Below the pieces are notes generated by a model. The model was not told the DNA's origin. It saw only the letters and a program-made list of their open reading frames with translations, and did not search any database. Of a DNA stretch of 64,000 bases, positions 7,525 through 58,290 are shown piece after piece. The stretch's first letter is position 1; the number at the start of each line of letters is the position of its first letter. The stretch comes from Deltaproteobacteria bacterium (lineage in GTDB: Bacteria > Desulfobacterota > Dissulfuribacteria > Dissulfuribacterales > UBA3076). The position numbers and the translations under genes are program-made. The DNA lies in contig PQXD01000003.1 in NCBI GenBank assembly GCA_003194485.1, forward strand, positions 33,067-97,066, written 5' to 3'.

Positions 7525-7608
7525 TTGAAACTTGAAATTAGAAATTAGAACGAAACAAAAGCATGAAGGCCAAATTTCCAATTTCTATTTTCCAATTTCC
7601 AATCTCAA
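7525..7608. repeat. hairpin element built from inverted heptamer arrays (GAAATTA/GGAAATT)
   Basis: The left arm is TTGAAACTTGAAATTAGAAATTAGAA and the right arm is AATTTCCAATTTCTATTTTCCAATTTCCAATCTCAA. The loop GAAACAAAAGCATGAAGGCC is shared with the element at 35010-35095. Confidence 0.8.
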
Positions 7609-12677: not shown

Positions 12678-13077
12678 GTAAATATTCGGTGAACCCGTTA
12701 TATCCTGCCTTGAAGCGGTTACCTTTTTCCGGGTTTCAAAGCTCACTCATCGCGGACCGGAGAGGCAGTGCAATCCGGCCCGCGATCGAAACCCTGCAAA
12801 AGGCAAACCGCTCCTGCGGCAGGGCGCGGATGGCAACCGTTCACAGGAAGGGGATATTTCTTTGAACAGTTTATAACGGAAGCCCCCGTAGTTTTCTCGG
12901 CTTTTGCTGTGGGGGAAACTGCATCGCCTTAAGCGCAGCGTAGGGCGAATGCAGAGGGGGCAGGACATCCCCCATGTCAAAAGCCTTAAGAAAACAAGGG
13001 GCTGAAGTGTGAAGTGAAAAGAAATATCCCCTGCCAGTGAACGGTTACGTAGGGTCACGGGTTCAGCGAATATTTAC
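12678..13077 (+). mobile_element. MITE copy A (400 bp, full modular form)
   Basis: The TIRs are GTAAATATTCGGTGAACCCGT and the reverse complement GTAAATATTCGCTGAACCCGT. An exact 8-bp direct duplication TTCAAAAT flanks it at 12670-12677 and 13078-13085. Confidence 0.85.
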
Positions 13078-18800: not shown

Positions 18801-19655
18801 CTAATCTTTCAGACTGACCAGGGCCTGACCGGGACCGTAGTCCAGTTCAACTTTAGCCACTTTTTTATATTTTCCTGAACTATAAAGTTGATACAGGACT
18901 TTTTCCGCCTTACTGAACTGAGAGTTGAGGTCTTCAGTATCAAAGTGAAAAGGAATACCGCTGTCAGCCGTATAGAGTATTAAGGTGTCTTTTCCGGCTA
19001 TGTGTATCTGGCTTATGTTATTGACACCCAGAGTTCTTGTACCTCTGCCTGCCATGGATATTAATTCCAGGGCCTTTTGGATCTGGTGATCTGGTGATTC
19101 GGTGATCTGGTGATTCTCTGTGTACTTCGGATCAATTCCTGTGATGATGGGAAGAGATACGGGCTCTTCCGCAGAAAGTAGTTCATCGATAATCTTACCC
19201 TGCTCATCAATCAAATAGATCTTGTCAGAATTCAATAGGGCTACCGGAGTGCGTTCTTTGATCGTGATCATCAAGTGGTCCGGCAGCTCTCTCTCAACTT
19301 CAACGGCATTGACCCAGGGATGCGCCTCTATGTTCGTTGCGATTGATTCCAGATCGAGAGACATGAGATTGTCCCGGGCGGTTACACCGCTGATCTGCAA
19401 AACCTCCTCTTCTGTGAGATGATTGCAGCCTTTCACCAGGACCTGGCCGACCCTGAAAAGTTCAGACCGACATACCCAATGCCAACACACAAAAAGGCCG
19501 GCAAGAACCAGGCATGCCGAGGCCATGGCGATCAACATTTTGGGATGGATAGACCACGATACCGGAAATATCAGACTGGTCCACGGGCCTGATCCATGCA
19601 TTGAAGACCTGAATTCTGTGGACGTCCTTCTGATCTTCATGTCTCCATACCCCAA
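18801..19655 (-). CDS. ftsQ: cell division protein FtsQ
   Basis: Single TM segment plus POTRA/FtsQ domains, positioned between murB and ftsA. It contains an in-frame octamer array (19081-19116). Confidence 0.8.
   Translation of the reverse strand: MGYGDMKIRRTSTEFRSSMHGSGPWTSLIFPVSWSIHPKMLIAMASACLVLAGLFVCWHWVCRSELFRVGQVLVKGCNHLTEEEVLQISGVTARDNLMSLDLESIATNIEAHPWVNAVEVERELPDHLMITIKERTPVALLNSDKIYLIDEQGKIIDELLSAEEPVSLPIITGIDPKYTENHQITESPDHQIQKALELISMAGRGTRTLGVNNISQIHIAGKDTLILYTADSGIPFHFDTEDLNSQFSKAEKVLYQLYSSGKYKKVAKVELDYGPGQALVSLKD
19081..19116. repeat. tandem octamer array (ATCTGGTG x4, one variant ATTCGGTG) inside ftsQ
   Basis: ATCTGGTGATCTGGTGATTCGGTGATCTGGTGATTC is read directly. It encodes ..NHQITESPDHQI.. 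Confidence 0.9.
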
Positions 19656-20542: not shown

Positions 20543-21926
20543 TCGCTGGCTCCTTTGTCTTAAGCATGTCCAGAATTTTCGTTCCTATACGGCCTATAGT
20601 GCCGGCACCGAGTGTTATGACCACGTCATCCTCCTGGAGACTTGATATAATTGCCCCGGGAAGGTCCCCGCAGGACTCCACATAATGCACCTGCCTGCCC
20701 TGTTTATCCCTGATATTTCTGGCCAGACGTCTTCCACTGACTCCGACTATGGGGGTTTCGCCGGCTGGATAGATCTCTGTCAGCCACAGTTCATCAGCCT
20801 CCCCAAAGGCCGTGGTGAAATCGTCCATTAACATCCGGGTCCTGCTGTACCGGTGGGGTTCAAAAAGAACCACGAACCGGCGTTCAGGCCAACATGTCCT
20901 GGCAGCCGCGAGTGTGGCCAGTATCTCAGTAGGGTGGTGCGCATAATCATCCACTATTGTTATCCCTTCTGCCTCACCCAGTATCTCAAATCGTCTGCCT
21001 ACACCTTCATATGACATGAGACCGGTCCGGATCTTGTGAAAGGGTATCTCAAGTTCAAGGCCCAGGGCCATTGCAGCCAGGGAATTTCTTACATGGTGCA
21101 GCCCCGGGACCTTGAGTTGTATCCTGCCGAGTTCGGCGTTCTGCCACCAGGCCCTGAAGGATGCTCCCAGGCCTTCGAAGTGTATGTCTCTGGCCTGCAG
21201 ATCAGACTCGGGTCCTGTCCCGTAAGTCATTACCCGTTTTTTTACTGCCGGGAGCATCTCTCTGAGGCGGGGGTCATCTCCGCAGAGTATGGCAAGGCCA
21301 TAGAAAGGGATTTTGTCTATGAAGTCCAGAAAACACCGGATTATGGCATTCATGTCTGCATAATAGTCCAGGTGCTCTCTGTCTATATTGGTTACCACGG
21401 CTATGCTTGGCGTAAGGCGCAGGAAACTCCCGTCACTCTCATCGGCTTCTGCTATCAGGAACTCGCCCTGTCCCCAACAGGCATTGCTTCCAATACCATT
21501 CACCTTTCCCCCTATGATGACCGTCGGATCAAGGCCGGCTGCGCGAAGCACAGAAGAGATCATAGAGGTCGTGCTGGTCTTTCCGTGAGCACCGGCCACT
21601 GCTATGCCGAACTTCTTGAGCCGCATCAATTCCGCAAGCATTTCAGCCCTCGGTATGACAGGAATTTGAGAGGAATAGGCCTCCTGGACTTCGGGGTTGC
21701 TTTCCCTGACGGCAGAAGAAATCACCACTACATCGGCTCCCTGAATATTTTCAGGGGCATGACCCTTATAGATTATGCCCCCCAGCTTATTGAGACACCT
21801 GGTGATTTCAGTCTCACATAAATCAGAACCTGTGATTGTATATCCAAGATTGAGAAGGACCCTTGCAAGTCCGCTCATGCCTATTCCGCCGATTCCCACA
21901 AAATGAATATGCTGTTTTTTATACAT
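20532..21926 (-). CDS. murC: UDP-N-acetylmuramate--L-alanine ligase
   Basis: IHFVGIGGIGMSGLA and the P-loop GAHGKTSTT. Confidence 0.93.
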   Translation of the reverse strand: MYKKQHIHFVGIGGIGMSGLARVLLNLGYTITGSDLCETEITRCLNKLGGIIYKGHAPENIQGADVVVISSAVRESNPEVQEAYSSQIPVIPRAEMLAELMRLKKFGIAVAGAHGKTSTTSMISSVLRAAGLDPTVIIGGKVNGIGSNACWGQGEFLIAEADESDGSFLRLTPSIAVVTNIDREHLDYYADMNAIIRCFLDFIDKIPFYGLAILCGDDPRLREMLPAVKKRVMTYGTGPESDLQARDIHFEGLGASFRAWWQNAELGRIQLKVPGLHHVRNSLAAMALGLELEIPFHKIRTGLMSYEGVGRRFEILGEAEGITIVDDYAHHPTEILATLAAARTCWPERRFVVLFEPHRYSRTRMLMDDFTTAFGEADELWLTEIYPAGETPIVGVSGRRLARNIRDKQGRQVHYVESCGDLPGAIISSLQEDDVVITLGAGTIGRIGTKILDMLKTKEPAIAF

Positions 21927-23115
21927 GACTATGCAGTGTAGAATCTTTCAATGAATTATTCCCTGCTTCAGAACATGAAAGACTATGGCAGGCCATCTTT
22001 ATCAGCGTGGCGGCTATTTCTGCGGCTGCCATGGGTCTTCCGAGTTTTCGAGCATTTTTCCCCATATTAGCGAGTTTTTCAGGATCCTCAAGCAAGGACT
22101 GTATCTCTCCTGCCAGTTTGACAGCACCTATTTCTCCCTCCCGGAAATATTTTGCAGCCCCGGCCACAGACAGTTCTCTGGCATTGGCCTCTTGATGCAT
22201 ATCTGTTGCCGATGGATAGGGAATCAGTATAGAGGGCCTTCCAAGGGCTGTGACCTCGGCCAGCGTACCTGCACCGGCCCGGCAGATAACCAGATCCGCC
22301 CAGGAATAGGATTCACCAATATCGGATATAAATGGAGTCACTCTGGCCGGAATGTCTGCGTCCTTGTAAAATTTCTCAATATCCGGCACATCCAGCTTAC
22401 CGGTTTGGTGGATAATTTCCACATGAAAACCGGATTGCCACAAGACCTGAATGGCCGAACAGACAAGCCGGTTCAGGCATCTGGCACCCTGACTTCCCCC
22501 CAGCACCAGGAGCCTGGAATCTGGTGATCTGGTGATCTGGTGATCTGGTGATTGAATAATGTCTTTCCGTATGGGATTTCCGGTGAAAATTACCCTGTTT
22601 TTTGGAAAGTATCTGGCAGTTTCCTTGAAGCTCACAAACACGGTCTTTGCAAATCTTGAGGCCAGACGGTTCGTGAGCCCGGGGATGAGATTCTGTTCAT
22701 GGATGGCAACGGATACCCGCAATATTCTTGCTGCAAGCAGCACGGGCCCGGAGACATATCCCCCTACACCCAATACCACATGAGGCCTGAATGATTTAAG
22801 CCACAAAAAGGCCCTGGCAGCGGAGGAGGGAAGCCCGGCCAGAGAGCATATGGTTCCTGCAAGGCCTGAGCCCCTGAGAGGTCTTGTACTCAGGATGCGA
22901 TAATCCCATTGACGCCCTGAGAGTGCATCTTTTTCCACCGGACGGCCCGTGCCTATCCACAAGACATCCACATGACCGTATATTTCCATGGCTTCAGCCA
23001 CGGCTATTCCCGGAAACACATGTCCTCCCGTACCACCACCGGCTACGACCAATTTGGTGGTTTGGTGATCCGGGTTGCGGATTACGGATTGCGGATTGCG
23101 GATTGCGATGTCCAT
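21919..23115 (-). CDS. murG: undecaprenyldiphospho-muramoylpentapeptide beta-N-acetylglucosaminyltransferase MurG
   Basis: VVAGGGTGGHVFPG and GGSQGA motifs. The ATG lies 4 nt after the murD stop. The gene carries two in-frame repeat arrays. Confidence 0.9.
   Translation of the reverse strand: MDIAIRNPQSVIRNPDHQTTKLVVAGGGTGGHVFPGIAVAEAMEIYGHVDVLWIGTGRPVEKDALSGRQWDYRILSTRPLRGSGLAGTICSLAGLPSSAARAFLWLKSFRPHVVLGVGGYVSGPVLLAARILRVSVAIHEQNLIPGLTNRLASRFAKTVFVSFKETARYFPKNRVIFTGNPIRKDIIQSPDHQITRSPDSRLLVLGGSQGARCLNRLVCSAIQVLWQSGFHVEIIHQTGKLDVPDIEKFYKDADIPARVTPFISDIGESYSWADLVICRAGAGTLAEVTALGRPSILIPYPSATDMHQEANARELSVAGAAKYFREGEIGAVKLAGEIQSLLEDPEKLANMGKNARKLGRPMAAAEIAATLIKMACHSLSCSEAGNNSLKDSTLHSHV
22519..22553. 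repeat. tandem octamer array (ATCTGGTG x4) inside murG
   Basis: The unit is the same as in ftsQ. It encodes IIQSPDHQITRSPDS at the inter-domain linker just before LVLGGSQGA. Confidence 0.9.
23072..23106. repeat. tandem heptamer array (GGATTGC-type x5) at the murG 5' end
   Basis: GGGTTGC GGATTAC GGATTGC GGATTGC GGATTGC encodes IAIRNPQSVIRNP immediately after the ATG. Confidence 0.9.
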
Positions 23116-23119
23116 TTAT

Positions 23120-24529
23120 TCAATCACCCAGTTCCAGGACTGCCTTCTGAAAGGCCATGCCCCGTTCTTCATAGTTCCTGAACATATCAAAGCTGGAACA
23201 GGCCGGGGAAAGGAGTACGGCATCACCCGGCTCGGCCAGGGACATAGCCTCTCTTACGGCTTTCTCCATGGTCTTTTTGCCGTCTTTTGTTCCGCGCACT
23301 TCGATAACCGGTATTACCTTGCTCAGGACCCTTTCAAATGCCCCGGCCTCCTCTCCCATGACAACCGCGCTGCGAATGCGTCCCCCTTTTGCAGTTTCTG
23401 CCAGTGATGAGTAATCTTCACCCTTGCCGCGGCCGCCGGCAATCAGCACTATTGGCTGCCCTATGGATTTAAGGGCACAGAGTACGGATGCCATATTGGT
23501 GGCCTTGGAGTCGTCATAATAGTCTATGCCTCCATATTGGGCCACCCACTGAAGCCTGTGGGGCGCGGCTTTGAAGCTGCGGACAACAGACTGCACGGCA
23601 CCTGCACCTGCACCTGCCAGACGTGAAATAAGTATGGCGCAAGCCAGGTTTTGAGCGTTGTGCAGGCCCTTCAGTGACCAGCCTTCCAGATCATATTCCT
23701 CACATTTATTATCATGCCACATGACGTTGATCTTTTTCAGGGATGTGTCCAGCACTGCTCCGGGAACCCCGGGGCGCAGTCCTCCGAAGCAGAGCCTTCT
23801 GGCACGCCCTCTGTTCTTCCACTTTTCCAGTTCCTTGTCGTCCATATTGCGGATGGCCCAATCTTCAGGCCACTGGAAATCGTATATTACTGCCTTGCTC
23901 TCTCCGTAACTTCTGATGTCCCGGTAGCGGTCAAGGTGATCCGGGGCAAGATTGAGCCATGCCGCTATCCTGAACCTTGGAGGACGGAAGGGGAAGTATT
24001 TGACCCTGGGGAAGTAATCCAACTGGAAGCTGCTGATTTCAAGAACCGCAATAGTTTCACCGGTGTGTCTTTCAATGAACATAGATAATGGCTGCCCGAT
24101 GTTCCCTGCCTTTACATGAGGCACACCGGCCTTTTCTAACATCTCATCCACGAGCATCGTGGTAGTGGTTTTCCCGTTTGTGCCGGTTATGCCGATTAAA
24201 GGCCCCTTCCAAAAAGATGCCGCAAGGGCCAGCTCCCCGACCACAGGTATATTGGACCTGCGTGCGGCCTCAAGGGCAGGGGTTTCATGCGGAACACCCG
24301 GGCTGACCACAATCAGATCGGATGAGAGGCAGGTCTCCACCTCATGTCTTTTCGTCTCCACCCTAACGCCGTTTTCGTCACACCAGTCTGCCAGTCCCTC
24401 GGGCCACCTGTCCAGTGGATTCAAGTCGCTGCACGTGACTTGCGCCCCCTGGGAGACGATCCATCCGGCAGCCGCCTGTCCGGATACACCCATGCCCAGT
24501 ACTGTTACTTTCCTGCCTTTCAGTTCCAC
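23120..24529 (-). CDS. murD: UDP-N-acetylmuramoylalanine--D-glutamate ligase
   Basis: VLGMGVSGQAAA Rossmann N-terminus and the P-loop GITGTNGKTTTT. Confidence 0.93.
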   Translation of the reverse strand: MELKGRKVTVLGMGVSGQAAAGWIVSQGAQVTCSDLNPLDRWPEGLADWCDENGVRVETKRHEVETCLSSDLIVVSPGVPHETPALEAARRSNIPVVGELALAASFWKGPLIGITGTNGKTTTTMLVDEMLEKAGVPHVKAGNIGQPLSMFIERHTGETIAVLEISSFQLDYFPRVKYFPFRPPRFRIAAWLNLAPDHLDRYRDIRSYGESKAVIYDFQWPEDWAIRNMDDKELEKWKNRGRARRLCFGGLRPGVPGAVLDTSLKKINVMWHDNKCEEYDLEGWSLKGLHNAQNLACAILISRLAGAGAGAVQSVVRSFKAAPHRLQWVAQYGGIDYYDDSKATNMASVLCALKSIGQPIVLIAGGRGKGEDYSSLAETAKGGRIRSAVVMGEEAGAFERVLSKVIPVIEVRGTKDGKKTMEKAVREAMSLAEPGDAVLLSPACSSFDMFRNYEERGMAFQKAVLELGD

Positions 24530-25647: not shown

Positions 25648-28600
25648 CTATCCTCCTCCCAGATGCCTGATAAGGGCATCTGCTGCCTTCTCAAGGCCTA
25701 CGGCCCGTGATCCCTTTACGAGTATAATTGCCGGGGAAGGCATGCAATCAAGAGCGTCTGATTCTATCCATGAAAGCAAATCCTCCGTGTCGGGGAAGAT
25801 GCGGATAGCCTCTTGCGAAATACCCGCCTTTTTTGCAGCCCCGGAAACAGTATCAGCAAACCGGCCTGCTGAAACTAAAAGATCAACCCCTGTTTGGGCT
25901 GCAAGCCGTCCGAGATCCTGATGAAACTTGCGAGCGGCATTGCCGAGTTCCAGCATGTCTCCCAGGATCGCTATCTTTTTCTCGCCCCTGCTCCAGAATT
26001 CGAGGGTCTCAAGGGCCGCTCTCGCAGAACCGGGATTTGCATTATAAGAATCGTCTATCAGCCTCCATCCGGATCCAAGATTCTTCAGAAACAGACGGCC
26101 CGGAACCGGTTTCACTTCCTCAAGCCCCTGCTTTATACTGACCGGCTTCAGCCCCACTGCATGGCCTGCAGCCGCGGCTGCAACGGCATTCTGCACGTTC
26201 GCCTTACCTATGAGGGAAAGATCGACAGAGAGCCTGCTTCCCGCGATATCCAGGTCCAGCAGAGTGCCATGCTCGACCGGGGTCCAGGACAGGCAAGTGA
26301 TTGCAGCTTTGAGCTTTGAGCTTTGAGCTTTGAGTTGGGGATTGGGTGTCAGAGAATAACCCACTATCCGGCACGTCAGATCTTTTGCCCCTTCAGTAAC
26401 CAGTGGGTCGTCAAGGTTCATCACTGCCACACCCGTCCGGGGAAGGGCTCTCCAGAGTCCCCATTTTTCTTCGGCCACTTCTTTTATGCCCCCCAGGCCG
26501 ACAAGATGGGCAGGCTGTATGGTAGTAATAAGGCCCGCTTGCGGCTGAGCGATTTCGCACAGCCGGGATATCTCTCCGGGCCGGTTCGTTCCCATCTCCA
26601 GCATTACCCAGGAGTCATCGGTTTTGGCCGAAAGCAGGCTGAGGGGAAGTCCGATAAGGTTGTTGAAATTCCCCGGGGTCTTAGCCACTTTCCATTTCTT
26701 CCCCAGGATCGAGGAAATCAGTTCTTTTGTTGTGGTCTTGCCGCAACTACCTGTAATGCCGATCACCTTGATTCCGAGGTATTCCCTGTACCATGATGCG
26801 AAGTCTCCCAGGCTCTTCAAGGTATCCTGAACTTTCAACAGGACCGGACGGGATCGAGGGCTGAAAGCCGAAAGTCCAGGGTCAGGAATCGAACTGACTA
26901 CGGCACCAACGGCGCCTTTTCTTATGGCTTCGAGGACAAAGTCATGGCCGTTGAAGCGGTCCCCTGGAAGCGCCCAGAATATATTCCCTGTTCTCACCGA
27001 TCTGGAATCTGTTGATACGCCATGGATTGATATGTCAGGATCACCCGAAAGGACTCGGGCTCCAATGGCCTTTGCCACCTGGGAGGCCTTTAATCGAAAT
27101 CCCTGATCCTCAAGAACCTCTACTTTTGACTCTTGTCTTTTATTCCCTGAACCCTGAACCCTGAACCCTGAACCCTGAACCCTGCCTTTTGACCCAAAGG
27201 CCTCTTTCAATACCTCTCTATCGTCAAAGGCAAATCGCCCGCTGCCGATTATCTGGCATGTTTCGTGGCCCTTCCCTGCCACCAGCAGGCAGGCGCCGGG
27301 GCGCGCTCTTTCCGCCGCCCATGATATGGCGTCCCTCCTGTCCGGAATTACCTTCACTTTTGCTCTGTTTGCAGGATGATGAGGCGGAAGGTCCCTGAGG
27401 CCGTTCAACATCTGCTCGAGTATGGCAAGAGGGTCTTCAGTGCGGGGATTGTCAGAGGTCAGCACAACAATATCCGCGAGTGAAGCCGCTGCCTGCGCCA
27501 TAAGAGGACGCTTACTCCGGTCCCTGTCCCCACCGCAGCCGACTACGCAAATCACGGGCCTGAATCCTAATGTAACAAGGCTGTTCAGGACACATTCAAG
27601 GGCATCAGGTGTGTGAGCATAATCTACAAAAGCAGTCACTCCATTGGGAGTGCACACAGGATCGAGTCTCCCCGGAATGCGCGTCACTGATTCTATACCG
27701 GCCTGAATATGGTCCGTATCTATCCCGAGGGCGATTGAAGCCGCTACTGCTGCAAGGATGTTATAGAGATTATAGGAACCCGTAAGCCTGGATCTGAAAG
27801 AAACAGGCCCTCTGGGCGTGACAAGCCTGCCTGTTATTCCATCAATATTGATGGACTGCGACTCAGGCCTCACCTCGGCCTCAGGACTGAGACCATAACT
27901 GATCTTTTCTTTTTGCAGAATCTCCCACAGTCGCCTTCCATGGAGGTCATCAATATTAATAATTGCCGCACCAGAGGGATGCTCCAAAAACAGTTTTGCC
28001 TTAGCCCGGAAATATCGTTCCATGTCTTGGTGATAATCCAGGTGATCGCGGCCCAGATTGGTAAAGACAGATGCGGCGAAACTGCACCCGGAGATCCTTC
28101 GCTGGTCAATGGCATGAGAAGATACCTCCAAGGCCGCCGCTTTTACTCCTTGTTCCAGCATATCTGCCAGAATCTTTTGCAGTCTTACGGCATCCGGGGT
28201 GGTGAGTTCGGAAGGTACCTCCACACCTCCATGTCTCCTGTTTATAGTCCCTATTACACCAGGGTTCAGTCCGGCTTTGCTGAAGATTCCTTCCATGAGA
28301 TATGTGATCGTGGTCTTACCATTAGTGCCCGTAACGGCTACGAGGTCCATTTTTTCACTGGGGTTTCCATAAAAGGCACTTGCCAGGAGGCCGGTTGAGA
28401 GCCTGGGATCGTCAACCCCTATAACAGGAAGTGTTCCAGGTACGGATTCGATATAATAACGTCGGGCGTCCTGGCCCGGCACTAACAGGACAGCGGCTCC
28501 TTTCTCTACGGCATCACTGATAAATTGTCTTCCGTCAAATTCAGTGCCTGGAATTGCCGCGAATACGTATCCCTGCTTCACCTGCCTGGAGTCTGCGGAT

Positions 28601-28725
28601 ATGCCCGTGATTTTTACGTCATCAAGGTCCGATGGAGAAAAAACGGTGGGCCTAACAGGTCTGAGCACTCCCAACATATCCCGTAATGCCCTTTCGTTCT
28701 GCATGTTATTAGACATCACTTGCAC
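25648..28725 (-). CDS. murE-murF: fused MurE (meso-DAP-adding ligase) and MurF (D-Ala-D-Ala-adding ligase), 1025 aa
   Basis: Two complete Mur-ligase modules with P-loops VAVTGTNGKTT (N-terminal half) and ITGSCGKTTT (C-terminal half). They are joined by the linker GRVQGSGFRVQGSGNKRQESKVEVLEDQG. Confidence 0.9.
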   Translation of the reverse strand: MQVMSNNMQNERALRDMLGVLRPVRPTVFSPSDLDDVKITGISADSRQVKQGYVFAAIPGTEFDGRQFISDAVEKGAAVLLVPGQDARRYYIESVPGTLPVIGVDDPRLSTGLLASAFYGNPSEKMDLVAVTGTNGKTTITYLMEGIFSKAGLNPGVIGTINRRHGGVEVPSELTTPDAVRLQKILADMLEQGVKAAALEVSSHAIDQRRISGCSFAASVFTNLGRDHLDYHQDMERYFRAKAKLFLEHPSGAAIINIDDLHGRRLWEILQKEKISYGLSPEAEVRPESQSINIDGITGRLVTPRGPVSFRSRLTGSYNLYNILAAVAASIALGIDTDHIQAGIESVTRIPGRLDPVCTPNGVTAFVDYAHTPDALECVLNSLVTLGFRPVICVVGCGGDRDRSKRPLMAQAAASLADIVVLTSDNPRTEDPLAILEQMLNGLRDLPPHHPANRAKVKVIPDRRDAISWAAERARPGACLLVAGKGHETCQIIGSGRFAFDDREVLKEAFGSKGRVQGSGFRVQGSGNKRQESKVEVLEDQGFRLKASQVAKAIGARVLSGDPDISIHGVSTDSRSVRTGNIFWALPGDRFNGHDFVLEAIRKGAVGAVVSSIPDPGLSAFSPRSRPVLLKVQDTLKSLGDFASWYREYLGIKVIGITGSCGKTTTKELISSILGKKWKVAKTPGNFNNLIGLPLSLLSAKTDDSWVMLEMGTNRPGEISRLCEIAQPQAGLITTIQPAHLVGLGGIKEVAEEKWGLWRALPRTGVAVMNLDDPLVTEGAKDLTCRIVGYSLTPNPQLKAQSSKLKAAITCLSWTPVEHGTLLDLDIAGSRLSVDLSLIGKANVQNAVAAAAAGHAVGLKPVSIKQGLEEVKPVPGRLFLKNLGSGWRLIDDSYNANPGSARAALETLEFWSRGEKKIAILGDMLELGNAARKFHQDLGRLAAQTGVDLLVSAGRFADTVSGAAKKAGISQEAIRIFPDTEDLLSWIESDALDCMPSPAIILVKGSRAVGLEKAADALIRHLGGG
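26305..26339. repeat. tandem heptamer array (AGCTTTG x4 plus one degenerate unit) inside the MurF module
   Basis: AGCTTTGAGCTTTGAGCTTTGAGCTTTGAGTTGGG encodes PQLKAQSSKLKAA. Confidence 0.9.
27145..27184. repeat. tandem heptamer array (CCCTGAA x5.5) forming the murE-murF junction
   Basis: CCCTGAACCCTGAACCCTGAACCCTGAACCCTGAACCCTG encodes RVQGSGFRVQGSG on the minus strand. The same heptamer occurs intergenically at 50373-50397. Confidence 0.9.
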
Positions 28726-33538: not shown

Positions 33539-33934
33539 GTAAATATTCTTATGAACCCGTCCGTGGTCCACTGCGCAGACCGTTCACTGGCAGGGGATAT
33601 TTCTTTTCACTTAACACTTCAGCCCCTTGTTTTCTTAAGGCTTTTGACATGGGGGAGTCTTGCCCCCTCCCCGTTCTCCTTCGCTGCGCTCAGGAGCCGG
33701 GGTTTCCCCCACAGCAAAAGCCAAGAAAACTACGGGGGCTTCCGTTAAACTGTTCAAAGAAATATCCCCTTCCCGTGAACGGTTGCCATCCGTGCCCTGC
33801 CGCAGGAGCGGTTTGCCTTTTGCAGGGTTTCGATCGCGGGCCAAATTGCACTGCCCCTTTCGGTCTGCAATGAGTGAGCTTTGAAACCCGGAAAAAGGTA
33901 ACCGCTTCAAGGCAGGATATATTAGAATATTTAC
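33539..33934 (-). mobile_element. MITE copy B (396 bp, inverted relative to A and C)
   Basis: Near-identical to copy C across module 1 and the hairpin module. The flanks AGAGAATT and GAAGAATC are only partly similar. Confidence 0.85.
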
Positions 33935-34595: not shown

Positions 34596-34996
34596 GTAAA
34601 TATTCTTATGAACCCGTTATATCCTGCCTTGAAGCGGTTACCTTTTTCCGGGCTTCAAAGCTCACTCATCGCAGACCGGAGATGCGGTGCAATCCGGTCC
34701 GCGATCGAAACCCTGCAAAAGGCAAACCGCTCCTGCGGCAGGGGGCACAGATGGCAACCGTTCACGGGCAGGGGATATTTCTTTGAACAGTTTAACGGAA
34801 GCCCCCGTAGTTTTCTTGGCTTTTGCTGTGGGGGAAACCCCGGCTCCTGAGCGCAGCGAAGGAGAACGGGGAGGGGGCAAGACTCCCCCATGTCAAAAGC
34901 CTTAAGAAAACAAGGGGCTGAAGTGTTAAGTGAAAAGAAATATCCCCTGCCAGTGAACGGTCTGCGGAATGGACCACGGGTTCACCGGATATTTAC
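34596..34996 (+). mobile_element. MITE copy C (401 bp)
   Basis: The TIRs are GTAAATATTCTTATGAACCCGT and the reverse complement GTAAATATCCGGTGAACCCGT. An exact 8-bp duplication GCTCACGG flanks it at 34588-34595 and 34997-35004. Confidence 0.88.
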
Positions 34997-35009: not shown

Positions 35010-35095
35010 TGGAACTGGAAAATGGGAATTGGGAATTTGGCCTTTACGCTTTTGTTTCATCTCTGCCGAATTTCTAATTTCCAATCTCAAGTTCC
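35010..35095. repeat. heptamer-array hairpin element overlapping the purD-purE stop
   Basis: The arms GGAACTGGAAAATGGGAATTGGGAATTTGG and CGAATTTCTAATTTCCAATCTCAAGTTCC pair. The loop is homologous to that at 7551-7572. The last codons ELEIGN* of purD-purE lie in the right arm. Confidence 0.8.
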
Positions 35096-36882
35096 TCTAT
35101 CTCTTTTGCCTGGGCCTCTCTGTATTCCTTCAATTTCCTAGCAAGGTCCCGGTCTTCCAACGCCAGGATCTGAAGTGCCAACAAGGCGGCATTTTTTGCT
35201 CCGGCTTCTCCTATTGCCATGGTTGCAACCGGAACGCCGGGCGGCATCTGGGCAGTGGAAAGCAGGGCATCAATTCCGTTCAGTGCCGAATTGCCTACCG
35301 GCACCCCTATCACCGGAAGGATCGTATTCGCTGCCAGGGTGCCGGCCAGGTGCGCGGCCATTCCGGCGCCGGCAATCAGGACCTTTATCCCTCTGGCCTC
35401 TGCCTCCCCGGCGTATGACGCGGTAAGCCCGGGGGAACGATGGGCCGAGGCAACCCTCAACTCACAGGCTATGCCAAACTCGTTCAGAATATCCCTGGCC
35501 GCTTCCATAACCTCTTTGTCACTGAGACTTCCCATGACAATGCCCACCTTGGCGGTGCTGCCGGTATGCCGGTTTCCCGGCATACCGGCAGCACCGGACG
35601 TGTGTCTGAGAGCCTTTTGGCCGATATCCCTTCTATAGTGCATCCCCTCCCAGGAGATCTGTCCAACTGCTTCATATGCAAGGTCTATCGCCTCTGAAAT
35701 AGTATTCCCGAGTGCCGTAACCCCCAGGACCCTTCCGCCGGATGTGACGAATCGATCTCCATCCTTGGCAGTCCCTGCGTGAAAAACCATCACGTCTTGC
35801 ATCTCAGCCACTTTTTCCAGCCCGTGAATAACCTTGCCTGTCTCGTAATTTCCAGGATAGCCTCCGGAGGCCATGACAACGCAGACGGCAGTCCTTGGAT
35901 CCCACTCAAGTTTTATTTCATTCAGCCTGCCTTCAAGTGCTGCCTCAAATATCTCCATCAGGTCAGTGCGGAGTCTCATCAGGATCGGCTGGGCCTCAGG
36001 GTCACCGAACCGGCAGTTAAATTCCAGGACCTCTGGTATGCCATCTCTAATCATAAGCCCGCCGTAAAGCACTCCCTGATAGGGCCTTTTTGCCTTTGCC
36101 ATGGCTTTCACAGCGGGCCTCATAATGTTTTCCATAATATCGTCAAACAGGGCGCTGCTTACCACTGGTGCCGGAGAGTAGGCACCCATACCGCCGGTAT
36201 TGGGCCCCATGTCATTATCAAATACAGACTTATGATCCTGGGAAGTGGCAAGGGGAAGGACTGTCGTCCCGTCGGTTACAGCCATGAAGGAGGCCTCTTC
36301 TCCGGTGAGAAATTCCTCTACTATAAGTCGATTGCCTGCTTCGCCAAAGACCTTTTTGCGAAGGATAAGATCTATTGCCTCCTCCGCCTCGGCAAGGCTA
36401 TGAGCAAGCAACACCCCTTTGCCGGCCGCCAGCCCGTCCGCCTTTATTGCAACAGGCACTCCAACTATGCTCTTGACATAATCAAATGCGGCATCCGGAT
36501 CGGTAAAGACCTTGTAGGACCCTGTTCGAATGCCTGCTTCAGTCAGCAGTTCCTTTGAAAATACCTTGCTGGCCTCGATCTCAGCAGCCGCTTTAGTGGG
36601 CCCGAATACTGCAAGTCCATGCTTGCTGAAACTGTCTGCCAGGCCCTCAACCAGGGGGGCTTCCGGGCCTACAACCGTCATATCGATACCTTCCTTTTTG
36701 ACAAATGATACAAGGCCGTTAATGTCAGAGACCCTTAAGGATATGCAGGCGGCATGTTGACTTATGCCGGAATTTCCGGGCGCGCAGAATACTCTGGAAA
36801 TTTTGGGACTGGATGCCAGCTTCCAGCAAATGGCGTGTTCACGTCCTCCGGAACCTATTACCAGGATTTTTTTCTGATCCAT
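35074..36882 (-). CDS. purD-purE: fused phosphoribosylamine--glycine ligase (PurD) and N5-CAIR mutase (PurE), 602 aa
   Basis: The N-terminal part of about 425 aa is ATP-grasp PurD (KILVIGSGGREHA...). The C-terminal part of about 160 aa is PurE (VGIVMGSLSDKEVM...SAHRSP...GAGMAAHLAG). The two parts are joined by GAAGMPGNRHTGST. Confidence 0.9.
   Translation of the reverse strand: MDQKKILVIGSGGREHAICWKLASSPKISRVFCAPGNSGISQHAACISLRVSDINGLVSFVKKEGIDMTVVGPEAPLVEGLADSFSKHGLAVFGPTKAAAEIEASKVFSKELLTEAGIRTGSYKVFTDPDAAFDYVKSIVGVPVAIKADGLAAGKGVLLAHSLAEAEEAIDLILRKKVFGEAGNRLIVEEFLTGEEASFMAVTDGTTVLPLATSQDHKSVFDNDMGPNTGGMGAYSPAPVVSSALFDDIMENIMRPAVKAMAKAKRPYQGVLYGGLMIRDGIPEVLEFNCRFGDPEAQPILMRLRTDLMEIFEAALEGRLNEIKLEWDPRTAVCVVMASGGYPGNYETGKVIHGLEKVAEMQDVMVFHAGTAKDGDRFVTSGGRVLGVTALGNTISEAIDLAYEAVGQISWEGMHYRRDIGQKALRHTSGAAGMPGNRHTGSTAKVGIVMGSLSDKEVMEAARDILNEFGIACELRVASAHRSPGLTASYAGEAEARGIKVLIAGAGMAAHLAGTLAANTILPVIGVPVGNSALNGIDALLSTAQMPPGVPVATMAIGEAGAKNAALLALQILALEDRDLARKLKEYREAQAKEIEELEIGN
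35554..35595. repeat. perfect 42-nt palindrome (19-bp arms, 4-nt loop) forming the purD-purE junction
   Basis: In GGTGCTGCCGGTATGCCGG TTTC CCGGCATACCGGCAGCACC the arms are exact reverse complements. The sequence is 14 codons, in frame. Confidence 0.95.
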
Positions 36883-37092: not shown

Positions 37093-37289
37093 GTAAATAT
37101 TCTTATGAATCCGTGGTCCACTGTGGAAGTTGCCATCCGTGACCTGCCGCAGAAGCGGTTTGCCTTTTGCAGGGTTTCGATCGCGGGCCGGATTGCACTG
37201 CCTCTCCGGTCTGCGATGAGTGAGCTTTGAAACCCGGAAAAAGGCAACCGCTCCAAGGCGGGACTATAACGGGTTCTCCGGATATTTAC
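37093..37289 (-). mobile_element. MITE copy D (197 bp, short form lacking the internal hairpin module)
   Basis: Both TIRs and module 1 are present. An exact 8-bp duplication GCTGGAAC flanks it at 37085-37092 and 37290-37297. Confidence 0.88.
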
Positions 37290-38843: not shown

Positions 38844-40685
38844 TTGCAGGATGGTCTCCGGACACTGAAAGTACTCCAAGAAAAGAAAGGCCAAAAAGTG
38901 CCTGATATTCGGGAAATCACCTGGGTGTCAGAGACGGGTTCTACCAATGACCTTGCCAGAGAGAATTTTCAAAAAAGAGGGATTCTGTGGCGCTGTTTTG
39001 TTGCCGGCTCCCAGACCAGGGGCAGGGGTAGGAAAGGCCGGAACTGGATTTCTCCTCCCGGCACCGGCCTGTATCTGTCGATTGCTGTGCCAAGGCCCGG
39101 AATTCTGGAGGCCTGGCTCCCTCTAACCTGCGCCATTGCCTCATCGGCCGCCATACAATCCATTCTCACCAGGTCCCGCTGTGCCAGGCCGCCTTCTATT
39201 AAAATAAAATGGCCCAACGACCTGTATATTGAAAATGGAAAGTTGGCAGGTATGCTTTGCGAACTGGCAGACGGATCCGAAAGTCCTGCCTGGATAATCG
39301 GAATAGGCATAAACATTTGCACTCCGAAAAATGCCTTCCCGGAACATCTCAGGGAAAAGGCGTGTTCCATATCAAGCGCTACGGGTTGCCGGGTCTCCCG
39401 AGACTCCCTGCTTGAAGAACTGCTCGTTCATCTCTCTTTCTGGCTGGGAAAGATATATGAAGGCAATGTCTCGGCTATTTTGAATTTTATTGAAAAAACA
39501 GAAATAATGGGCATAATTCAGGGATCAGAAACCGGGCGGATCTCCAGCCACAGGCCCGCACAGCCTGACACAGGCGACCAGATCGCTGAATCAAGGATAA
39601 TACCGCAGATGCAGACAGATATCCGCAGGCTACAATCGTCAAATCGTCAAATCGTCAAATCGTCAAATCGTCAAATCGTCAAATCGTCAAATCCGCTGGG
39701 TATCACCATGGGCTGTCCGGCGGGAATCGGTCCTGAAATCATTATAAAGGCATTCGCTGCCAATCCTGAATGGCTGCTTTCACCTCCGGCAGTGGTCATA
39801 GGGGACATGAATATACTTAAAAAGGCATCAAGGGCGCTTGATATCGACATTCCCCTTAAGTCCTGGGTGCCTGGAGATCCCATTTCCGGCAGTGCGATAC
39901 ATGTGATTACACGGACAGACCTTAATGCCGAGGATATCCTTTGGGGAAAGCCGAACCCAGTCACTGGAAAGGCCTCTTTCGAGTATGTCACTGAGGGCAT
40001 CAGACTCTGCCTGGGAAAAAGTCTCTCCGGCCTTGTGACCGGCCCTATCAGTAAACTGGGCCTCAGGCTTGCCGGCATCTCCTACCCCGGACATACCGAG
40101 ATATTGGCCGACAGGACCAACACGGAAAGATATGCAATGATGCTGGCAGGCGACAGGCTCAGGGTAGCCCTTGTGACCATACACTGCCCCTTGAGGGAGG
40201 TGGCGGACAGCATCAGCACGGAAAAGATTTTTCAAGTAATTTTCCTTACGGATTCCTTCTTAAGAAATGAACTCGGCATAAAAGAGCCGGAGATTGCCGT
40301 GGCCGCACTGAATCCACATGGAGGCGAGTCCGGGATGTTTGGCAAAGAAGAAGAGCATATCATATCGCCCGCTATAGAAATGGCCCGGGGAAAGGGTATA
40401 GCGGCCAATGGGCCTTATCCTCCTGACACAGTGTTTTATCAGGCTGTCAATGGGAAATTCGACGCTGTAGTCTGCCAGTATCATGACCAGGGGCTGATTC
40501 CCTTTAAGCTCATTCATTTCAGAGACGGGGTCAACCTGACCTTAGGCCTTCCGATAACCAGGACTTCAGTAGATCACGGGACTGCATATGACATCGCCGG
40601 TACCGGAAAGGCGGATTGTGCCAGTCTTGAGGCGGCAATCAGACTCGCATCGAAGATAGTGGAAAAGAGAAAAGAAGGTCCATAA
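38844..40685 (+). CDS. birA-pdxA: fused biotin--protein ligase-like (BirA catalytic domain) and 4-hydroxythreonine-4-phosphate dehydrogenase (PdxA), 613 aa
   Basis: The N-terminal part has VSETGSTNDLA...AGSQTRGRGRKGRNWISPPGTGLYLS (BPL motifs). From ITMGCPAGIGPEII to the end is a complete PdxA. The junction reads QSSNRQIVKSSNRQIVKSSNP. Confidence 0.8.
   Translation: MQDGLRTLKVLQEKKGQKVPDIREITWVSETGSTNDLARENFQKRGILWRCFVAGSQTRGRGRKGRNWISPPGTGLYLSIAVPRPGILEAWLPLTCAIASSAAIQSILTRSRCARPPSIKIKWPNDLYIENGKLAGMLCELADGSESPAWIIGIGINICTPKNAFPEHLREKACSISSATGCRVSRDSLLEELLVHLSFWLGKIYEGNVSAILNFIEKTEIMGIIQGSETGRISSHRPAQPDTGDQIAESRIIPQMQTDIRRLQSSNRQIVKSSNRQIVKSSNPLGITMGCPAGIGPEIIIKAFAANPEWLLSPPAVVIGDMNILKKASRALDIDIPLKSWVPGDPISGSAIHVITRTDLNAEDILWGKPNPVTGKASFEYVTEGIRLCLGKSLSGLVTGPISKLGLRLAGISYPGHTEILADRTNTERYAMMLAGDRLRVALVTIHCPLREVADSISTEKIFQVIFLTDSFLRNELGIKEPEIAVAALNPHGGESGMFGKEEEHIISPAIEMARGKGIAANGPYPPDTVFYQAVNGKFDAVVCQYHDQGLIPFKLIHFRDGVNLTLGLPITRTSVDHGTAYDIAGTGKADCASLEAAIRLASKIVEKRKEGP
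39633..39694. repeat. tandem octamer array (CAAATCGT x6 plus partial units) at the birA-pdxA junction
   Basis: CAATCGT(CAAATCGT)x6 CAAATCC is read directly. Three units equal 24 nt and give the 8-aa peptide period SSNRQIVK. Confidence 0.95.
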
Positions 40686-48309: not shown

Positions 48310-49725
48310 CTATTTACTCAGCCTTGCATGGGCCGAGGCCACTGCCTGTGCAATAATCCCGTAGTCTTCTTCCTGAACCGTCCTGATGTCCATAAGCACA
48401 CGGTCTTCTTCGATCCTCACGATCACAGGCGGTTCGTTTTTGCGCAGCTCGGCCTCGATGCGCGCAGCAGAAAACGCCTTGTTTTCCGGAGCAAGGGCTA
48501 CGGCCATTGACTTAAGCTGCTGCAGAGGCAAAGCACCACCCCCGACACGGGAAATGGTCTCTACTGTATTTATCGATATGCCGGTGAGTTTCAAGGCCCT
48601 TAGTCGCCTTTGCAGCCGTCTTGCACGGGATTTCAGCTCATCACGGGAAAGGCACAACATGTTGAGCGTGGGAATGACCCTAACCGCCCGCTCCGGATCC
48701 TGATAGAGTCTCAGGACCCCTTCCAGGGCCACAAGGGTGAGCTTGTCTATCCGGACCGCCCTGTTCATGGGGTTTTCCTTTATCCGGTCAACAAATTCCT
48801 TTTTCCCGATAATGATCCCTGCCTGTGGTCCGCCCAGGAGTTTATCACCACTGAAGCTCACCAGGTCCGCCCCGGCAGCCAGCGCCTCCTGGACCGTGGG
48901 CTCATGCATTATTCCATATCTTGAGAAGTCTATGAAGTTGCCGCTGCCCAGGTCTTCAAATACCGGGATGCCGTATCTTCCACCAAGTTCAGCCAGATCT
49001 GAGACGGATACGGCCATGGTAAAGCCTACCATCTGAAAGTTGCTCTGATGGACTTTGAGGAGAAGTGCGGTCTGTTCCCCTATGGCAGACTCATAGTCCC
49101 TCAAATGGGTGCGGTTTGTGGTCCCGACCTCCCTCAGGACGGCCCCGCTTTTTGTCATCACGTCAGGAATGCGGAAGGAACCGCCTATTTCCACCAGTTC
49201 ACCCCTGGAGACGATTACCTCTCTGCCCCCGGCCAGGGTTTCCAGTGTGATGAGGACTGCGGCGGCGTTGTTGTTCACTATAAGGGCCGACTCCGCCCCG
49301 GTAAGTCCACAGAGCAATTCTTCTACGTGGCTGTATCTGCTTCCCCTCATCCCTTTTTCCAGGTTATACTCCAAATTTGAGTACCGGCCTGCTACATCAA
49401 GCAAGGCCTGAGAGATCTCTTTCGGGAGAAGTGAACGTCCGAGATTTGTATGTATCACTACGCCTGTGGCGTTGACTACCGGCCTTAAGGAGGGCCTGAG
49501 CAAGGATGTCACACGCATTTCGATCTGTTTTTTTATGTTTTTATATTTTACTGATTCGGGATCAGGTTCCTGTGAGGACAGGATATATGAGCGCAGACTG
49601 TCAAGGACGTCTCTGCAGGCATTTACCTTGACCATTCGAGGAACTTTATTGGATAATGTCTGTATCAGTTCGTCAACCTTGGGAAGCTTCCTTAAGAGTT
49701 CTTGCTGAGATTGAGAATAACCCAT
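48310..49725 (-). CDS. selA: L-seryl-tRNA(Sec) selenium transferase
   Basis: LLRKLPKVDELI N-terminus, VVNATGVVIHTNLGRS, and the PLP-lysine region SFSGDKLLGGPQAG. The ATG at 49725 gives the MGYSQSQQELL start. Confidence 0.9.
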   Translation of the reverse strand: MGYSQSQQELLRKLPKVDELIQTLSNKVPRMVKVNACRDVLDSLRSYILSSQEPDPESVKYKNIKKQIEMRVTSLLRPSLRPVVNATGVVIHTNLGRSLLPKEISQALLDVAGRYSNLEYNLEKGMRGSRYSHVEELLCGLTGAESALIVNNNAAAVLITLETLAGGREVIVSRGELVEIGGSFRIPDVMTKSGAVLREVGTTNRTHLRDYESAIGEQTALLLKVHQSNFQMVGFTMAVSVSDLAELGGRYGIPVFEDLGSGNFIDFSRYGIMHEPTVQEALAAGADLVSFSGDKLLGGPQAGIIIGKKEFVDRIKENPMNRAVRIDKLTLVALEGVLRLYQDPERAVRVIPTLNMLCLSRDELKSRARRLQRRLRALKLTGISINTVETISRVGGGALPLQQLKSMAVALAPENKAFSAARIEAELRKNEPPVIVRIEEDRVLMDIRTVQEEDYGIIAQAVASAHARLSK

Positions 49726-50197
49726 GTTGCGTCTCTCTTTAATCTGGATTGATAAGACCAGGGATGCCTGGCTCAAGGCCGGCATCGAGCATTATATAGA
49801 AAAGATCGAGCATTACATTCGTGTGCAGGTCCTCCAGGTCCGGGGTGTAGGCTTTGCCCGGAATATGAGGCCTGACGAGGTCATGAAGCGCGAGGCCAAA
49901 TCCATTACAAAGGTCCTGCCAAAAGGGGGTTTTACAGTCGCTCTGGACGTAAAGGGCCGGATGTTGGATTCCCCCGGACTCGCAGAGTTGCTGACAGATC
50001 TGGAGGCAAGAGGGATTAAAGACATGGCCATGGTGATAGGCGGGGCTTCGGGGCTTGCACCGGAAATAATCAAGAGGGCGGATGAGAGCTTGTCTCTCTC
50101 CCCGATGACCTTTACACACGACATGGCAAGACTAATCCTGGTTGAGCAGATCTACAGGGCCTGCACCATCAATGCCGGCGAGCCCTATCACCATTGA
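49724..50197 (+). CDS. rlmH: 23S rRNA (pseudouridine1915-N3)-methyltransferase RlmH
   Basis: SPOUT-family RlmH pattern (IWIDKTRDAWLKAGIEHY..., VIGGASGLAPEI, SLSPMTFTH). Confidence 0.88.
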   Translation: MLRLSLIWIDKTRDAWLKAGIEHYIEKIEHYIRVQVLQVRGVGFARNMRPDEVMKREAKSITKVLPKGGFTVALDVKGRMLDSPGLAELLTDLEARGIKDMAMVIGGASGLAPEIIKRADESLSLSPMTFTHDMARLILVEQIYRACTINAGEPYHH

Positions 50198-50231
50198 AAG
50201 ATGAACGTCCAAATTGAAAGATGAACGTCCA

Positions 50232-50369
50232 ACATCGAACATCGAACGTCCAACATCGAATGAAAAACAAACATCCAATACCGAACACACAACAGCTATT
50301 TCCGTTTCTTCATCTTTTCCCATTCAAAATTCGATGTTGGACGTTCGATGTTCGATGTCCATTTTTTTT
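50232..50369 (+). terminator. long hairpin plus T8 downstream of rlmH
   Basis: ACATCGAACATCGAACGTCCAACATCGAAT (50232-50261) is the exact reverse complement of 50329-50358. A run of eight T follows at 50362-50369. Confidence 0.5.
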
Positions 50370-50412
50370 AAACCTTGAACCCTGAACCTTTGAACCCATG
50401 CCTATAATTCAT

Positions 50413-50637
50413 TCATGCCTCCACTACAGAGGTTACCTCGGGGATTTCACTCTTAAGATATCTCTCAATCCCTGACTTGAGTGTTATCTGGCTCAGGGCA
50501 CAGCCCTTGCAGGCTCCGGTGAGAGTGACCCTGACTATCCCGCTTTTTTCATCTACTTCCACCAGTTTTACATCCCCGCCGTCCCGCTGCAACATAGGGC
50601 GCACCTTGTCCAGTGCTTTTTGTACTCTGTCTTTCAT
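50413..50637 (-). CDS. NifU-like (Nfu C-terminal domain) Fe-S cluster carrier, 74 aa
   Basis: [28 protein letters not shown]...[11 protein letters not shown] carries the CxxC Nfu motif. The track ORF start at 50721 would overlap pyrE. Confidence 0.8.
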
Positions 50638-50656
50638 GATCTGTATTATTCTCCTT

Positions 50657-51226
50657 TTATTTTTCAGCCAGTGCCAGGATATCCCCACGCGTAAACAGCG
50701 CTGAAAGTTCATATCCGGCATTGCTCAGGGCCTTTCTTCCACCTTCCTCTCGATCAACAACAGTGAGTATCCGGGCCACTTCGTAACCTTCCTCCCTCGT
50801 CCTCTCAATTGCCTTTATGAGGGTTCCGCCAGTGGTAACCACGTCTTCGACAAGGGCCACCTTGCTACCAGGGGAAATGTTGGATTTTCCTTCTATCCAG
50901 GACCCGGTACCATGTCCTTTTGCTTCTTTTCGGATAATAAAGGCAGGGATGGGTCTCCCTTCAATAAAGCTCACCACGGAGACTGCTGTGACCAGCGGAT
51001 CGGCCCCCAGGGTCATTCCACCGACCCCTGAAATGCCTATGCCGGACTGCAGAATGCAATTGTACAGCAGCTTGCCGCATAGATATGCCCCCTCTGCAGA
51101 GAGCGTGGTCTGCTTGCAGTCTATGTAGAAGTCGCTCTTTTTCCCGGAGGTCAACCTGAAGGTCCCTTCTCTGTATGAGAGTTCAAATATCATCCGTCCG
51201 AGTCTTTCCCAGTCTTTCCGAATCAT
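50657..51226 (-). CDS. pyrE: orotate phosphoribosyltransferase
   Basis: [15 protein letters not shown] and the PRPP loop [13 protein letters not shown]. The start overlaps the purB stop by 4 nt. Confidence 0.9.
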
Positions 51227-52628: not shown

Positions 52629-52999
52629 GTAAACCGATTACAGGGTGCTTCTTTTTCCAACATGCTCTCGCCCCTTGTTTTCTGAGGCTTTTGCAGCCCG
52701 GGACCCTCCCCGTTCTCCTTCGCTGCGCTCCGGAGCCGGGGTATCCAGTTCTGCAAAAGCCAAAAAAACTACAAGGGCTAACGCAAATCGTTTCCAAAAG
52801 AAGCACCCTGTAATCGGTTTAAGTCCATTGTGCTTCGGAGTTGCCATCAGCACCCTGCCGCAGGAGCGGTTTGCCTTTTGCAGGGTTTCAACCGCGGGCC
52901 GGATTGCACTGCCTCTCCGGTCCGCGATGAGTGAGCTTTGAAACCCTGAAAAAGGTAACCGCTTCAAGGCAGGATATAACAGGTTCACCGAATATTTAC
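52629..52999 (-). mobile_element. MITE copy E (variant hairpin arms; left terminus divergent or truncated)
   Basis: Module 1 and the right TIR (reverse complement GTAAATATTCGGTGAACC) are conserved. The hairpin arms are replaced by AAACCGATTACAGGGTGCTTCTTTT / AAAAGAAGCACCCTGTAATCGGTTT. No target duplication is seen. Confidence 0.75.
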
Positions 53000-53031
53000 C
53001 GCGCTTTTTTCTGTTTTTCAAATTATTCGCC

Positions 53032-58204: not shown

Positions 58205-58290
58205 GAAACTGGAAATTAGAAATTAGAAATTAGGTAATGAATCTACATCTTTGTGTTTTCCCCAATTTCCAATTTCCAGTTTCCAGTTTC
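58205..58290. repeat. heptamer-array hairpin element (lpxA-fabZ spacer)
   Basis: GAAACTGGAAATTAGAAATTAGAAATTAGG pairs with CCCCAATTTCCAATTTCCAGTTTCCAGTTTC. Confidence 0.8.

Follow-up and report, generated by a model that had tools for sequence, protein, structure and literature searches.

Two kinds of described system meet in the locus reported here, bifunctional MurE-MurF ligases and long simple sequence repeats (SSRs). Purified MurE-MurF of Bordetella pertussis has been shown to have both activities and an elongated, flexible shape, its two halves being joined by about 20 linker residues (PMC6420597). Genomes rich in heptamers have been described but are poorly understood (Mrazek et al. 2007, as summarised in PMC4679880; PMC4692102); the long prokaryotic SSRs with units of 5-11 nt include the cyanobacterial heptanucleotide STRR, the TAACTGA repeat of Beggiatoaceae and the GGGAATC repeat of Xanthomonas. 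In this study, a stretch of 64,000 nucleotides from a Deltaproteobacteria bacterium (contig PQXD01000003.1, positions 33,067 to 97,066; hereafter the window) was analysed, in which a perfect heptanucleotide array encodes part of the linker of a fused murE-murF gene. The array is an ordinary long SSR, one more case of a class already described, and the fusion enzyme that carries it is likewise of a known type. The array very probably grew, as a slippage-prone repeat, inside the pre-existing disordered linker of a putatively bifunctional MurE-MurF enzyme whose fusion is ancient.

A heptanucleotide array in the linker of a MurE-MurF fusion

The gene is situated in the dcw cluster between ftsI and mraY. 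Its parts are given below with the evidence for each.

25648..28716, minus strand: murE-murF fusion gene (ORF list, translation, Pfam, NCBIfam, identical database proteins)
27190..28623, minus strand: MurE module, residues 35-512 (NCBIfam NF001126 and TIGR01085; AlphaFold predicted local distance difference test, pLDDT, of about 90)
27091..27189, minus strand: interdomain linker, residues 513-545, SKGRVQGSGFRVQGSGNKRQESKVEVLEDQG (predicted disordered; hypervariable alignment columns)
27145..27184, minus strand: heptanucleotide repeat, codons 514-527, (CCCTGAA)x5.7 on the plus strand and (AGGGTTC)x5.6 on the coding strand
25672..27090, minus strand: MurF module, residues 546-1018 (TIGR01143 and NF008041; AlphaFold model)

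The minus-strand open reading frame (ORF) at 25648-28725 encodes 1025 amino acids uninterrupted by a stop codon and is open from a GTG at 28725. Translation probably begins at the ATG at 28716, giving MSNNM as in the database protein P0126. Mur_ligase, Mur_ligase_M and Mur_ligase_C are each matched twice by Pfam, making two full sets. The NCBIfam MurE models score 638 bits over residues 35-512 against a cutoff of 373, and the MurF model TIGR01143 scores 498 bits over residues 572-1018 against a cutoff of 288.6. The curated bifunctional model NF008896 is matched end to end (protein 22-1019 to profile 23-957 of 965 positions) with 905.8 bits, which is below its cutoff of 1023 and leaves the protein outside the curated membership. 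The fusion may therefore belong to a separate fusion lineage in Thermodesulfobacteriota. As in the B. pertussis enzyme (PMC6420597; NF008896 / PRK11929), a complete MurE is followed by a complete MurF in one polypeptide with a flexible linker. The linker differs from that of B. pertussis in its length, about 33 residues compared with about 20, and in that about 14 of its residues come from the perfect heptanucleotide repeat.

Tandem Repeats Finder reported the array at 27145-27184 with a period of 7, 5.7 copies, 100% matches, no indels and a score of 80 for the unit CCCTGAA. Its minus-strand translation is GRVQGSGFRVQGSG. The original prediction, that a (CCCTGAA)n repeat encodes the junction between complete MurE and MurF modules, is borne out by this perfect array at codons 514-527 and by the Pfam and NCBIfam modules on both sides. 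Perfect arrays with a period of 6 to 12 and at least three copies were absent from all 50 first-order Markov simulations of the window, whereas the real window holds five of period 7 and two of period 8. Both properties by which long SSRs are recognised were found at the linker, namely tandem copies above chance and a whole-unit copy-number difference between close strains.

The repeats of the window share with the STRR, TAACTGA and GGGAATC repeats perfect heptamers far above chance, lineage-specific richness, dispersed unit families and whole-unit indels, and also the tolerance of arrays inside ORFs in the stop-free orientation only. Those repeats are mostly intergenic and often beside start codons, whereas here several arrays are inside housekeeping genes that are essential (murE-murF, murG and ftsQ) and change in three-unit steps. 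A further difference is that octamers are as common here as heptamers.

An AlphaFold2 model based on a 52-sequence alignment has a mean pLDDT of 87 and two confidently folded halves. The pLDDT falls below 50 solely at residues 1-9 and 513-542, the latter being the linker, which is predicted to have no secondary structure. The predicted template modelling score (pTM) of 0.54 leaves the relative orientation of the MurE and MurF halves undefined. The sole apparent requirement on the linker is that it be a harmless spacer.

Age of the fusion and turnover of the repeat

Homologues were collected from 5.8 billion proteins, and the best 120 range from 100% down to 38% identity. All 120 are fused MurE-MurF proteins of 964-1038 amino acids, except for two shorter ones (639 and 800 amino acids), one of which is annotated as partial. 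A scan of species genomes found fused genes in Geobacter, Desulfobacteraceae, Verrucomicrobiota, Planctomycetota, Burkholderiales and others. In an alignment of 52 homologues both modules are well conserved and the junction is hypervariable. Linkers have about 30 residues in the closest group, about 8 at 62-66% identity and almost none at about 50% (for example AF-G-ISVSQ). In a neighbour-joining tree, built without the linker and loop columns and without support values, the window lineage is outside both the repeat-bearing group (proteins P0002-P0021) and a nested group formed by P0022-24 and the loci L002 and L081. The members of the nested group, at 70-73% identity, have the same fusion with a short and non-repetitive linker (KVEAERSRRES). 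The fusion is older than the repeat, and the repeat is a later occupant of an existing linker.

The window protein falls in a 90%-identity cluster of 49 members, 15 of which were read. Eight of these carry GSKGRVQGSGFRVQGSGNKRQES and seven carry GSKGRVQGSGNKRQES, a difference of exactly 7 residues. The array peptide of the short allele is GRVQGSG, corresponding to 2.6 units as against 5.6 in the long allele (21 nt). Loci of close relatives were obtained by exact-protein look-ups, and a metagenome scan with the fusion protein added L081, the sole close relative among the matches listed. The strain L161 (JGI 3300033141) has 99.25% identity to the window across 17.7 kb with four indels in all, the fourth of which is TTCAGGGTTCAGGGTTCAGGG, that is (TTCAGGG)x3, a deletion allele of 21 nt or three units. 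The other three indels are tandem single-codon duplications (AAT, TAT and TGT at window positions 30191, 28455 and 27655) inside ftsI and murE. When the 15 proteins were sorted by 15 substitution sites, the long and the short allele each occurred on at least three haplotype backgrounds, and some pairs of proteins were one substitution and the 7-residue indel apart. The three-unit change is therefore either recurrent or has been spread by recombination.

In species about 20% divergent in protein sequence, arrays are found at the same codons with altered units. The units at the linker site are as follows.

Window: AGGGTTC x5.6
L165: AAGGTTC x5.6, with flanks identical to those of the window and one base changed in every unit
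L162: AGAGGTC/AGAAGTC
L164: AAGGTAG/AAGGTCA
L001 and L003: AAGGTTG/AAGGTAG

Compared with each other in the alignment of 52 homologues, the linkers of the relatives are separated by 7-residue gaps. Their encoded peptides differ (RVQGSGF, KVQGSRF, SEVRGQK, RRSKVEG, KVEGRRL) yet are polar without exception, with Gly, Ser, Arg, Lys and Glu abundant. The turnover of units at the linker, as read from these loci, has the pattern expected of concerted evolution in a tandem array. The suggestion that the array might be frozen by selection does not hold, as it is polymorphic within the species (5.6 versus 2.6 units) and remodelled between species.

Reading frame and competing explanations

Three heptamers make 21 nt, so that all three phases are read and one heptapeptide (RVQGSGF) results whatever the entry frame. 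The coding-strand unit TTCAGGG is free of stop codons in every phase, and the opposite strand contains TGA. Simulated changes of -2, -1, +1 and +2 units led to a stop 2-9 codons past the array, after ...FRE or ...QGIKDKSQK, whereas +3 units added RVQGSGF and kept the frame. The expectation that copy-number changes not divisible by three would frameshift MurF is thereby confirmed, and the natural alleles differ by exactly three units. No out-of-frame allele was found in the assemblies, neither among the 15 cluster members read nor in any relative. Only one in-frame codon of start type precedes the MurF core after the array, the GTG in SQVAK at a distance of 66 nt downstream; it follows a weak AAAGG, and P0011 and P0014 have Ile in its place. 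Nothing promoter-like was found nearby. An internal MurF start with its own ribosome-binding site, for which the original prediction had proposed to look, was rejected on these grounds. MurF is essential for peptidoglycan synthesis and, given that no internal start is conserved, a frameshift would therefore remove it.

The proposed course of events, as we infer it, is that replication slippage adds and removes units in steps of all sizes. Changes of one or two units would truncate the protein before MurF and would be purged by purifying selection, because MurF is essential. Changes of three units would merely make a flexible linker 7 residues longer or shorter and would survive. Over longer times a point mutation in one unit would spread across the array by concerted evolution, so that the site would come to hold related but distinct units in sister species. 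The repeat itself would need no adaptive role.

A different origin had been put forward in the original prediction, in which the murE stop and the murF start gave way to an intergenic heptamer array and the two genes were thereby welded together. The position of the array at the junction fits such an event, as do the dispersal of repeat unit families in the genome (GAAATTA, for example, at five sites) and the presence of a related array in an intergenic spacer:

50371..50396, plus strand: imperfect intergenic array, unit AACCTTG/AACCCTG, x3.6 (Tandem Repeats Finder)

This second array (period 7, 3.6 copies, 84% matches, score 36, unit AACCTTG) is flanked by convergent genes, an rlmH-like gene at 49724-50197 on the plus strand and a NifU-like gene at 50413-50721 on the minus strand. 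It had been assigned, at 50373-50397, to the same heptamer family as the linker array. The array is real and includes one exact CCCTGAA unit, and the CCYTGAA family thus has two loci within the 64-kb window; the likeness is imperfect, however, and could be due to chance. A 14-mer search of the window allowing up to 2 mismatches, with the linker array excluded, returned the intergenic array as its single extra site, with 0.84 expected by chance. The window has about 15 heptamer arrays, and the chance that one of them is within one mismatch of the linker unit was estimated at about 20%. A common unit family is therefore suggestive, and a shared origin of the two arrays is unproven. Against the welding of the two genes, the fusion is seen in each homologue down to 38% identity, also where the linker is non-repetitive or nearly missing. 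Relatives with separate murE and murF genes and a repeat-bearing spacer had been proposed as a check, but all 120 best homologues are fused, and the non-repetitive linkers of P0022-24, L002 and L081 are the very outcome that had been named as speaking against this origin. MurE-MurF fusions are furthermore known in unrelated bacteria, and the PurD-PurE and BPL-PdxA fusions of the window are also fused in more distant homologues, with linkers that have no clear repeat. Welding by the repeat is thus rejected as highly improbable. An assembly artefact, with a stop codon or gene boundary concealed by collapse or mis-assembly of the repeat, is extremely improbable, although repeats in metagenomes can be mis-assembled. 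The array is just 40 nt long, the long allele is present in at least eight and the short allele in seven database sequences from NCBI, ENA and JGI, and both recur in independent assemblies. All these sequences are in frame, and the ORFs of the relatives are intact.

The array could also act as a contingency locus, in which slippage turns MurF synthesis on and off or toggles between fused and separately translated enzymes. It shares with the phase-variable SSR loci in surface genes of Haemophilus and Neisseria a slippage-prone repeat inside an ORF, where non-triplet changes shift the frame. The perfect 5.7-unit array is demonstrably mutable, out-of-frame changes stop translation straight after the MurE module, and an in-frame GTG follows 66 nt downstream. 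The gene, however, is essential and not a surface gene, no out-of-frame allele was seen, the variation alters only the length of the linker, and the GTG has the poor start context described above. The on/off site of the original prediction is therefore considered very unlikely. Somewhat less improbable, though still unlikely, is an adaptive tuning in which 7-residue linker steps, or an mRNA G-quadruplex formed by (GGGUUCA) with at least four units, modulate MurE-to-MurF coupling, co-translational folding or MurG docking. An array has been kept at the linker site across divergent lineages, and (GGGUUCA)x5.6, the coding-strand form of the long allele, contains six G3 tracts, with a G-quadruplex predicted for its RNA. 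Its predicted minimum free energy changes from -20.3 to -26.9 kcal/mol when quadruplexes are allowed, with no change for the 2.6-unit allele. Quadruplex-forming G-rich heptamer repeats are documented in Xanthomonas and Nostoc (PMC4692102); an array of that type would have four or more G3 tracts with short loops, conserved across the arrays. In contrast, no quadruplex is predicted for the short allele, and the units of the relatives (AAGGTTC, AAGGTAG, AGAGGTC) have no GGG tracts. The encoded peptides also differ between relatives (RVQGSGF, KVQGSRF, SEVRGQK, RRSKVEG), both alleles coexist on the same backgrounds, and many fused homologues work with almost no linker.

Growth of a slippage-prone SSR in an older disordered linker is thus preferred, and some points weigh against it. 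The alleles were taken from assemblies and not from reads, and rare out-of-frame variants within populations are possible. The tree by which the linker states are ordered has no support values, and as the P0022-24 clade is nested, its linker may be a decayed array and not the state before the repeat. Neutrality is deduced, and the array or its descendants persist at the site across about 20% protein divergence and could be useful.

Further arrays in a repeat-rich lineage

In the window and in those close relatives that bear repeats, perfect 7-/8-nt arrays of at least three copies number 0.85-2.5 per 10 kb, compared with 0.03 per 10 kb in the dcw-region DNA (2.03 Mb) of about 150 distant relatives. 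The window lineage is about 35-80 times richer in such repeats than the distant relatives. No perfect 7-/8-nt array was found in the 14.6 kb of L081 and L002. The closest named genome with the fusion is UBA3076 (79% identity), which one preprint equates with Seep-SRB2, a partner of methane-oxidising archaea. A limited literature search returned no mention of 7-/8-nt repeat richness in the Seep-SRB2-related group and nothing specific on heptanucleotide repeats in sulfate reducers.

Arrays in coding sequence lie mostly in linkers, variable loops or termini, and some vary by 7- or 8-residue steps. Besides the linker array, they include the following.

26305..26334, minus strand: second heptamer array in murE-murF, (AGCTTTG)x4.3, read LKAQSSKLKA, in a variable MurF loop, residues 798-807
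22518-22555: octamer array in the MurG interdomain linker, residues 188-199
19079-19117: FtsQ array, residues 181-192, within the FtsQ C-terminal domain match (143-261)

At the MurF loop 798-807 (unit CAAAGCT) relatives have TTCAAAA or the octamer AATCACCA instead, with gaps of 7 or 8 residues between them. The octamer family AATCACCA/ATCACCAG, to which the ftsQ and murG arrays belong, gives NHQITKSP in the sense reading and has several sites in each of L001, L003, L162 and L165. Sites of AATCACCA number 2-6 per dcw locus in close relatives and one each in L081 and L002, and there are none in the 2.03 Mb of distant loci. By its distribution, AATCACCA is a dispersed, lineage-specific repeat family inside essential genes.

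In the window (21919-24529) and in L161, L162 and L165, murG directly follows murD in the dcw cluster without an intervening ftsW, unlike the usual gene order. At the murD-murG junction of the window, (CGCAATC)x5.3 at 23071-23107 encodes an N-terminal extension of MurG (IAIRNPQSVIRNP) 4 nt past the murD stop. The same junction in L001, L003, L162 and L165 has (AATCACCA)n, and murD ends there with an array, (ATTGGGTG)n, that is roughly complementary to it; the two could form a hairpin spanning the murG start. A degenerate array (TTCGACC/TTTGACT) is found in MurF at about residues 611-627 in window numbering, in L001 (4687-4724), L164 (7731-7768), L165 (7021-7057) and L003 (10137-10166), and its length is conserved (peptide STFDFRPLTFSPRS). 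Its distance downstream from the linker array is 230-250 nt, and in L001, L164 and L165 the two arrays have 70-80% complementarity over 37-38 nt. In L003 the tandem array alone was seen, with no detected complementarity to the one in the linker. The window copy is divergent, and a partner able to pair with the linker array was not detectable in the window.

Two further fusion genes of the window were inspected. The fusion of a BPL/LplA/LipB-type domain with PdxA (613 amino acids, 38844-40685, plus strand) contains (AATCGTCA)x7.5 at 39634-39693, corresponding to linker residues 264-284. A 97%-identical relative has exactly 8 residues fewer in this linker, equal to three octamers. The fusion was found only among homologues of about 58% identity or more; in L166 and L168, pdxA stands alone after a phosphoribosyltransferase gene, and its N-terminus retains part of the linker. 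The PurD-PurE fusion (602 amino acids, 35074-36882, minus strand) is present in 120 of the 120 best homologues, down to 59% identity. A supposed octamer array in its linker (35559-35588) was too degenerate to count as a repeat. The idea that repeats made either of these fusions was rejected, since distant homologues are fused with no clear linker repeat.

Between genes, heptamer arrays often occur as inverted pairs, as at 50217-50267 / 50316-50366, 58205-58237 / 58258-58290 and 7527-7550 / 7576-7599. Their units are GAACATC with TTCGATG (a 30-nt perfect complement) and GAAATTA with AATTTCC; the five window sites mentioned above are of the GAAATTA type. Judged by their pairing, these arrays could form long hairpins between genes, perhaps as terminators. 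A dispersed element of about 400 nt is found at 12678-13077 (plus), 33561-33921 (minus), 34596-34996 (plus) and 52670-53000 (minus), with a partial copy at 37129-37289 (minus). The copies are 78-96% identical and strongly self-complementary, with an RNA fold of -201 kcal/mol (z = -10.45). ORFs overlapping the element had no Pfam match and the element had no Rfam match; the Rfam search of the window returned tRNA-Glu only. In its sequence features the element looks like a miniature inverted-repeat transposable element (MITE).

Taken together with the linker, these arrays allow a broader but tentative proposal, which is less probable than not. An active or strongly biased process in this Seep-SRB2-like lineage might seed and spread a few 7-/8-nt families (AATCACCA, GAAATTA/AATTTCC, AAGGTNN) into permissive sites, such as linkers, loops and termini of essential enzymes, often as inverted pairs able to fold in the mRNA, followed by concerted turnover and three-unit steps. 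If this were true, the arrays would be a general engine of protein linker and loop growth and of hairpins between genes.

For the MurE-MurF enzyme, the account of its origin is corrected: the fusion is old and the repeat came later. The gene provides a clean natural example of how a non-triplet repeat unit persists in an essential gene, where only three-unit steps survive and the disordered linker absorbs the change in length. Within the lineage the linker lengthens from almost 0 to about 33 residues, a trend suggesting a contribution of repeat expansion to its growth. The analysis also draws attention to the richness in 7-/8-nt repeats of the Seep-SRB2-related group, to which syntrophic partners of methane-oxidising archaea belong.

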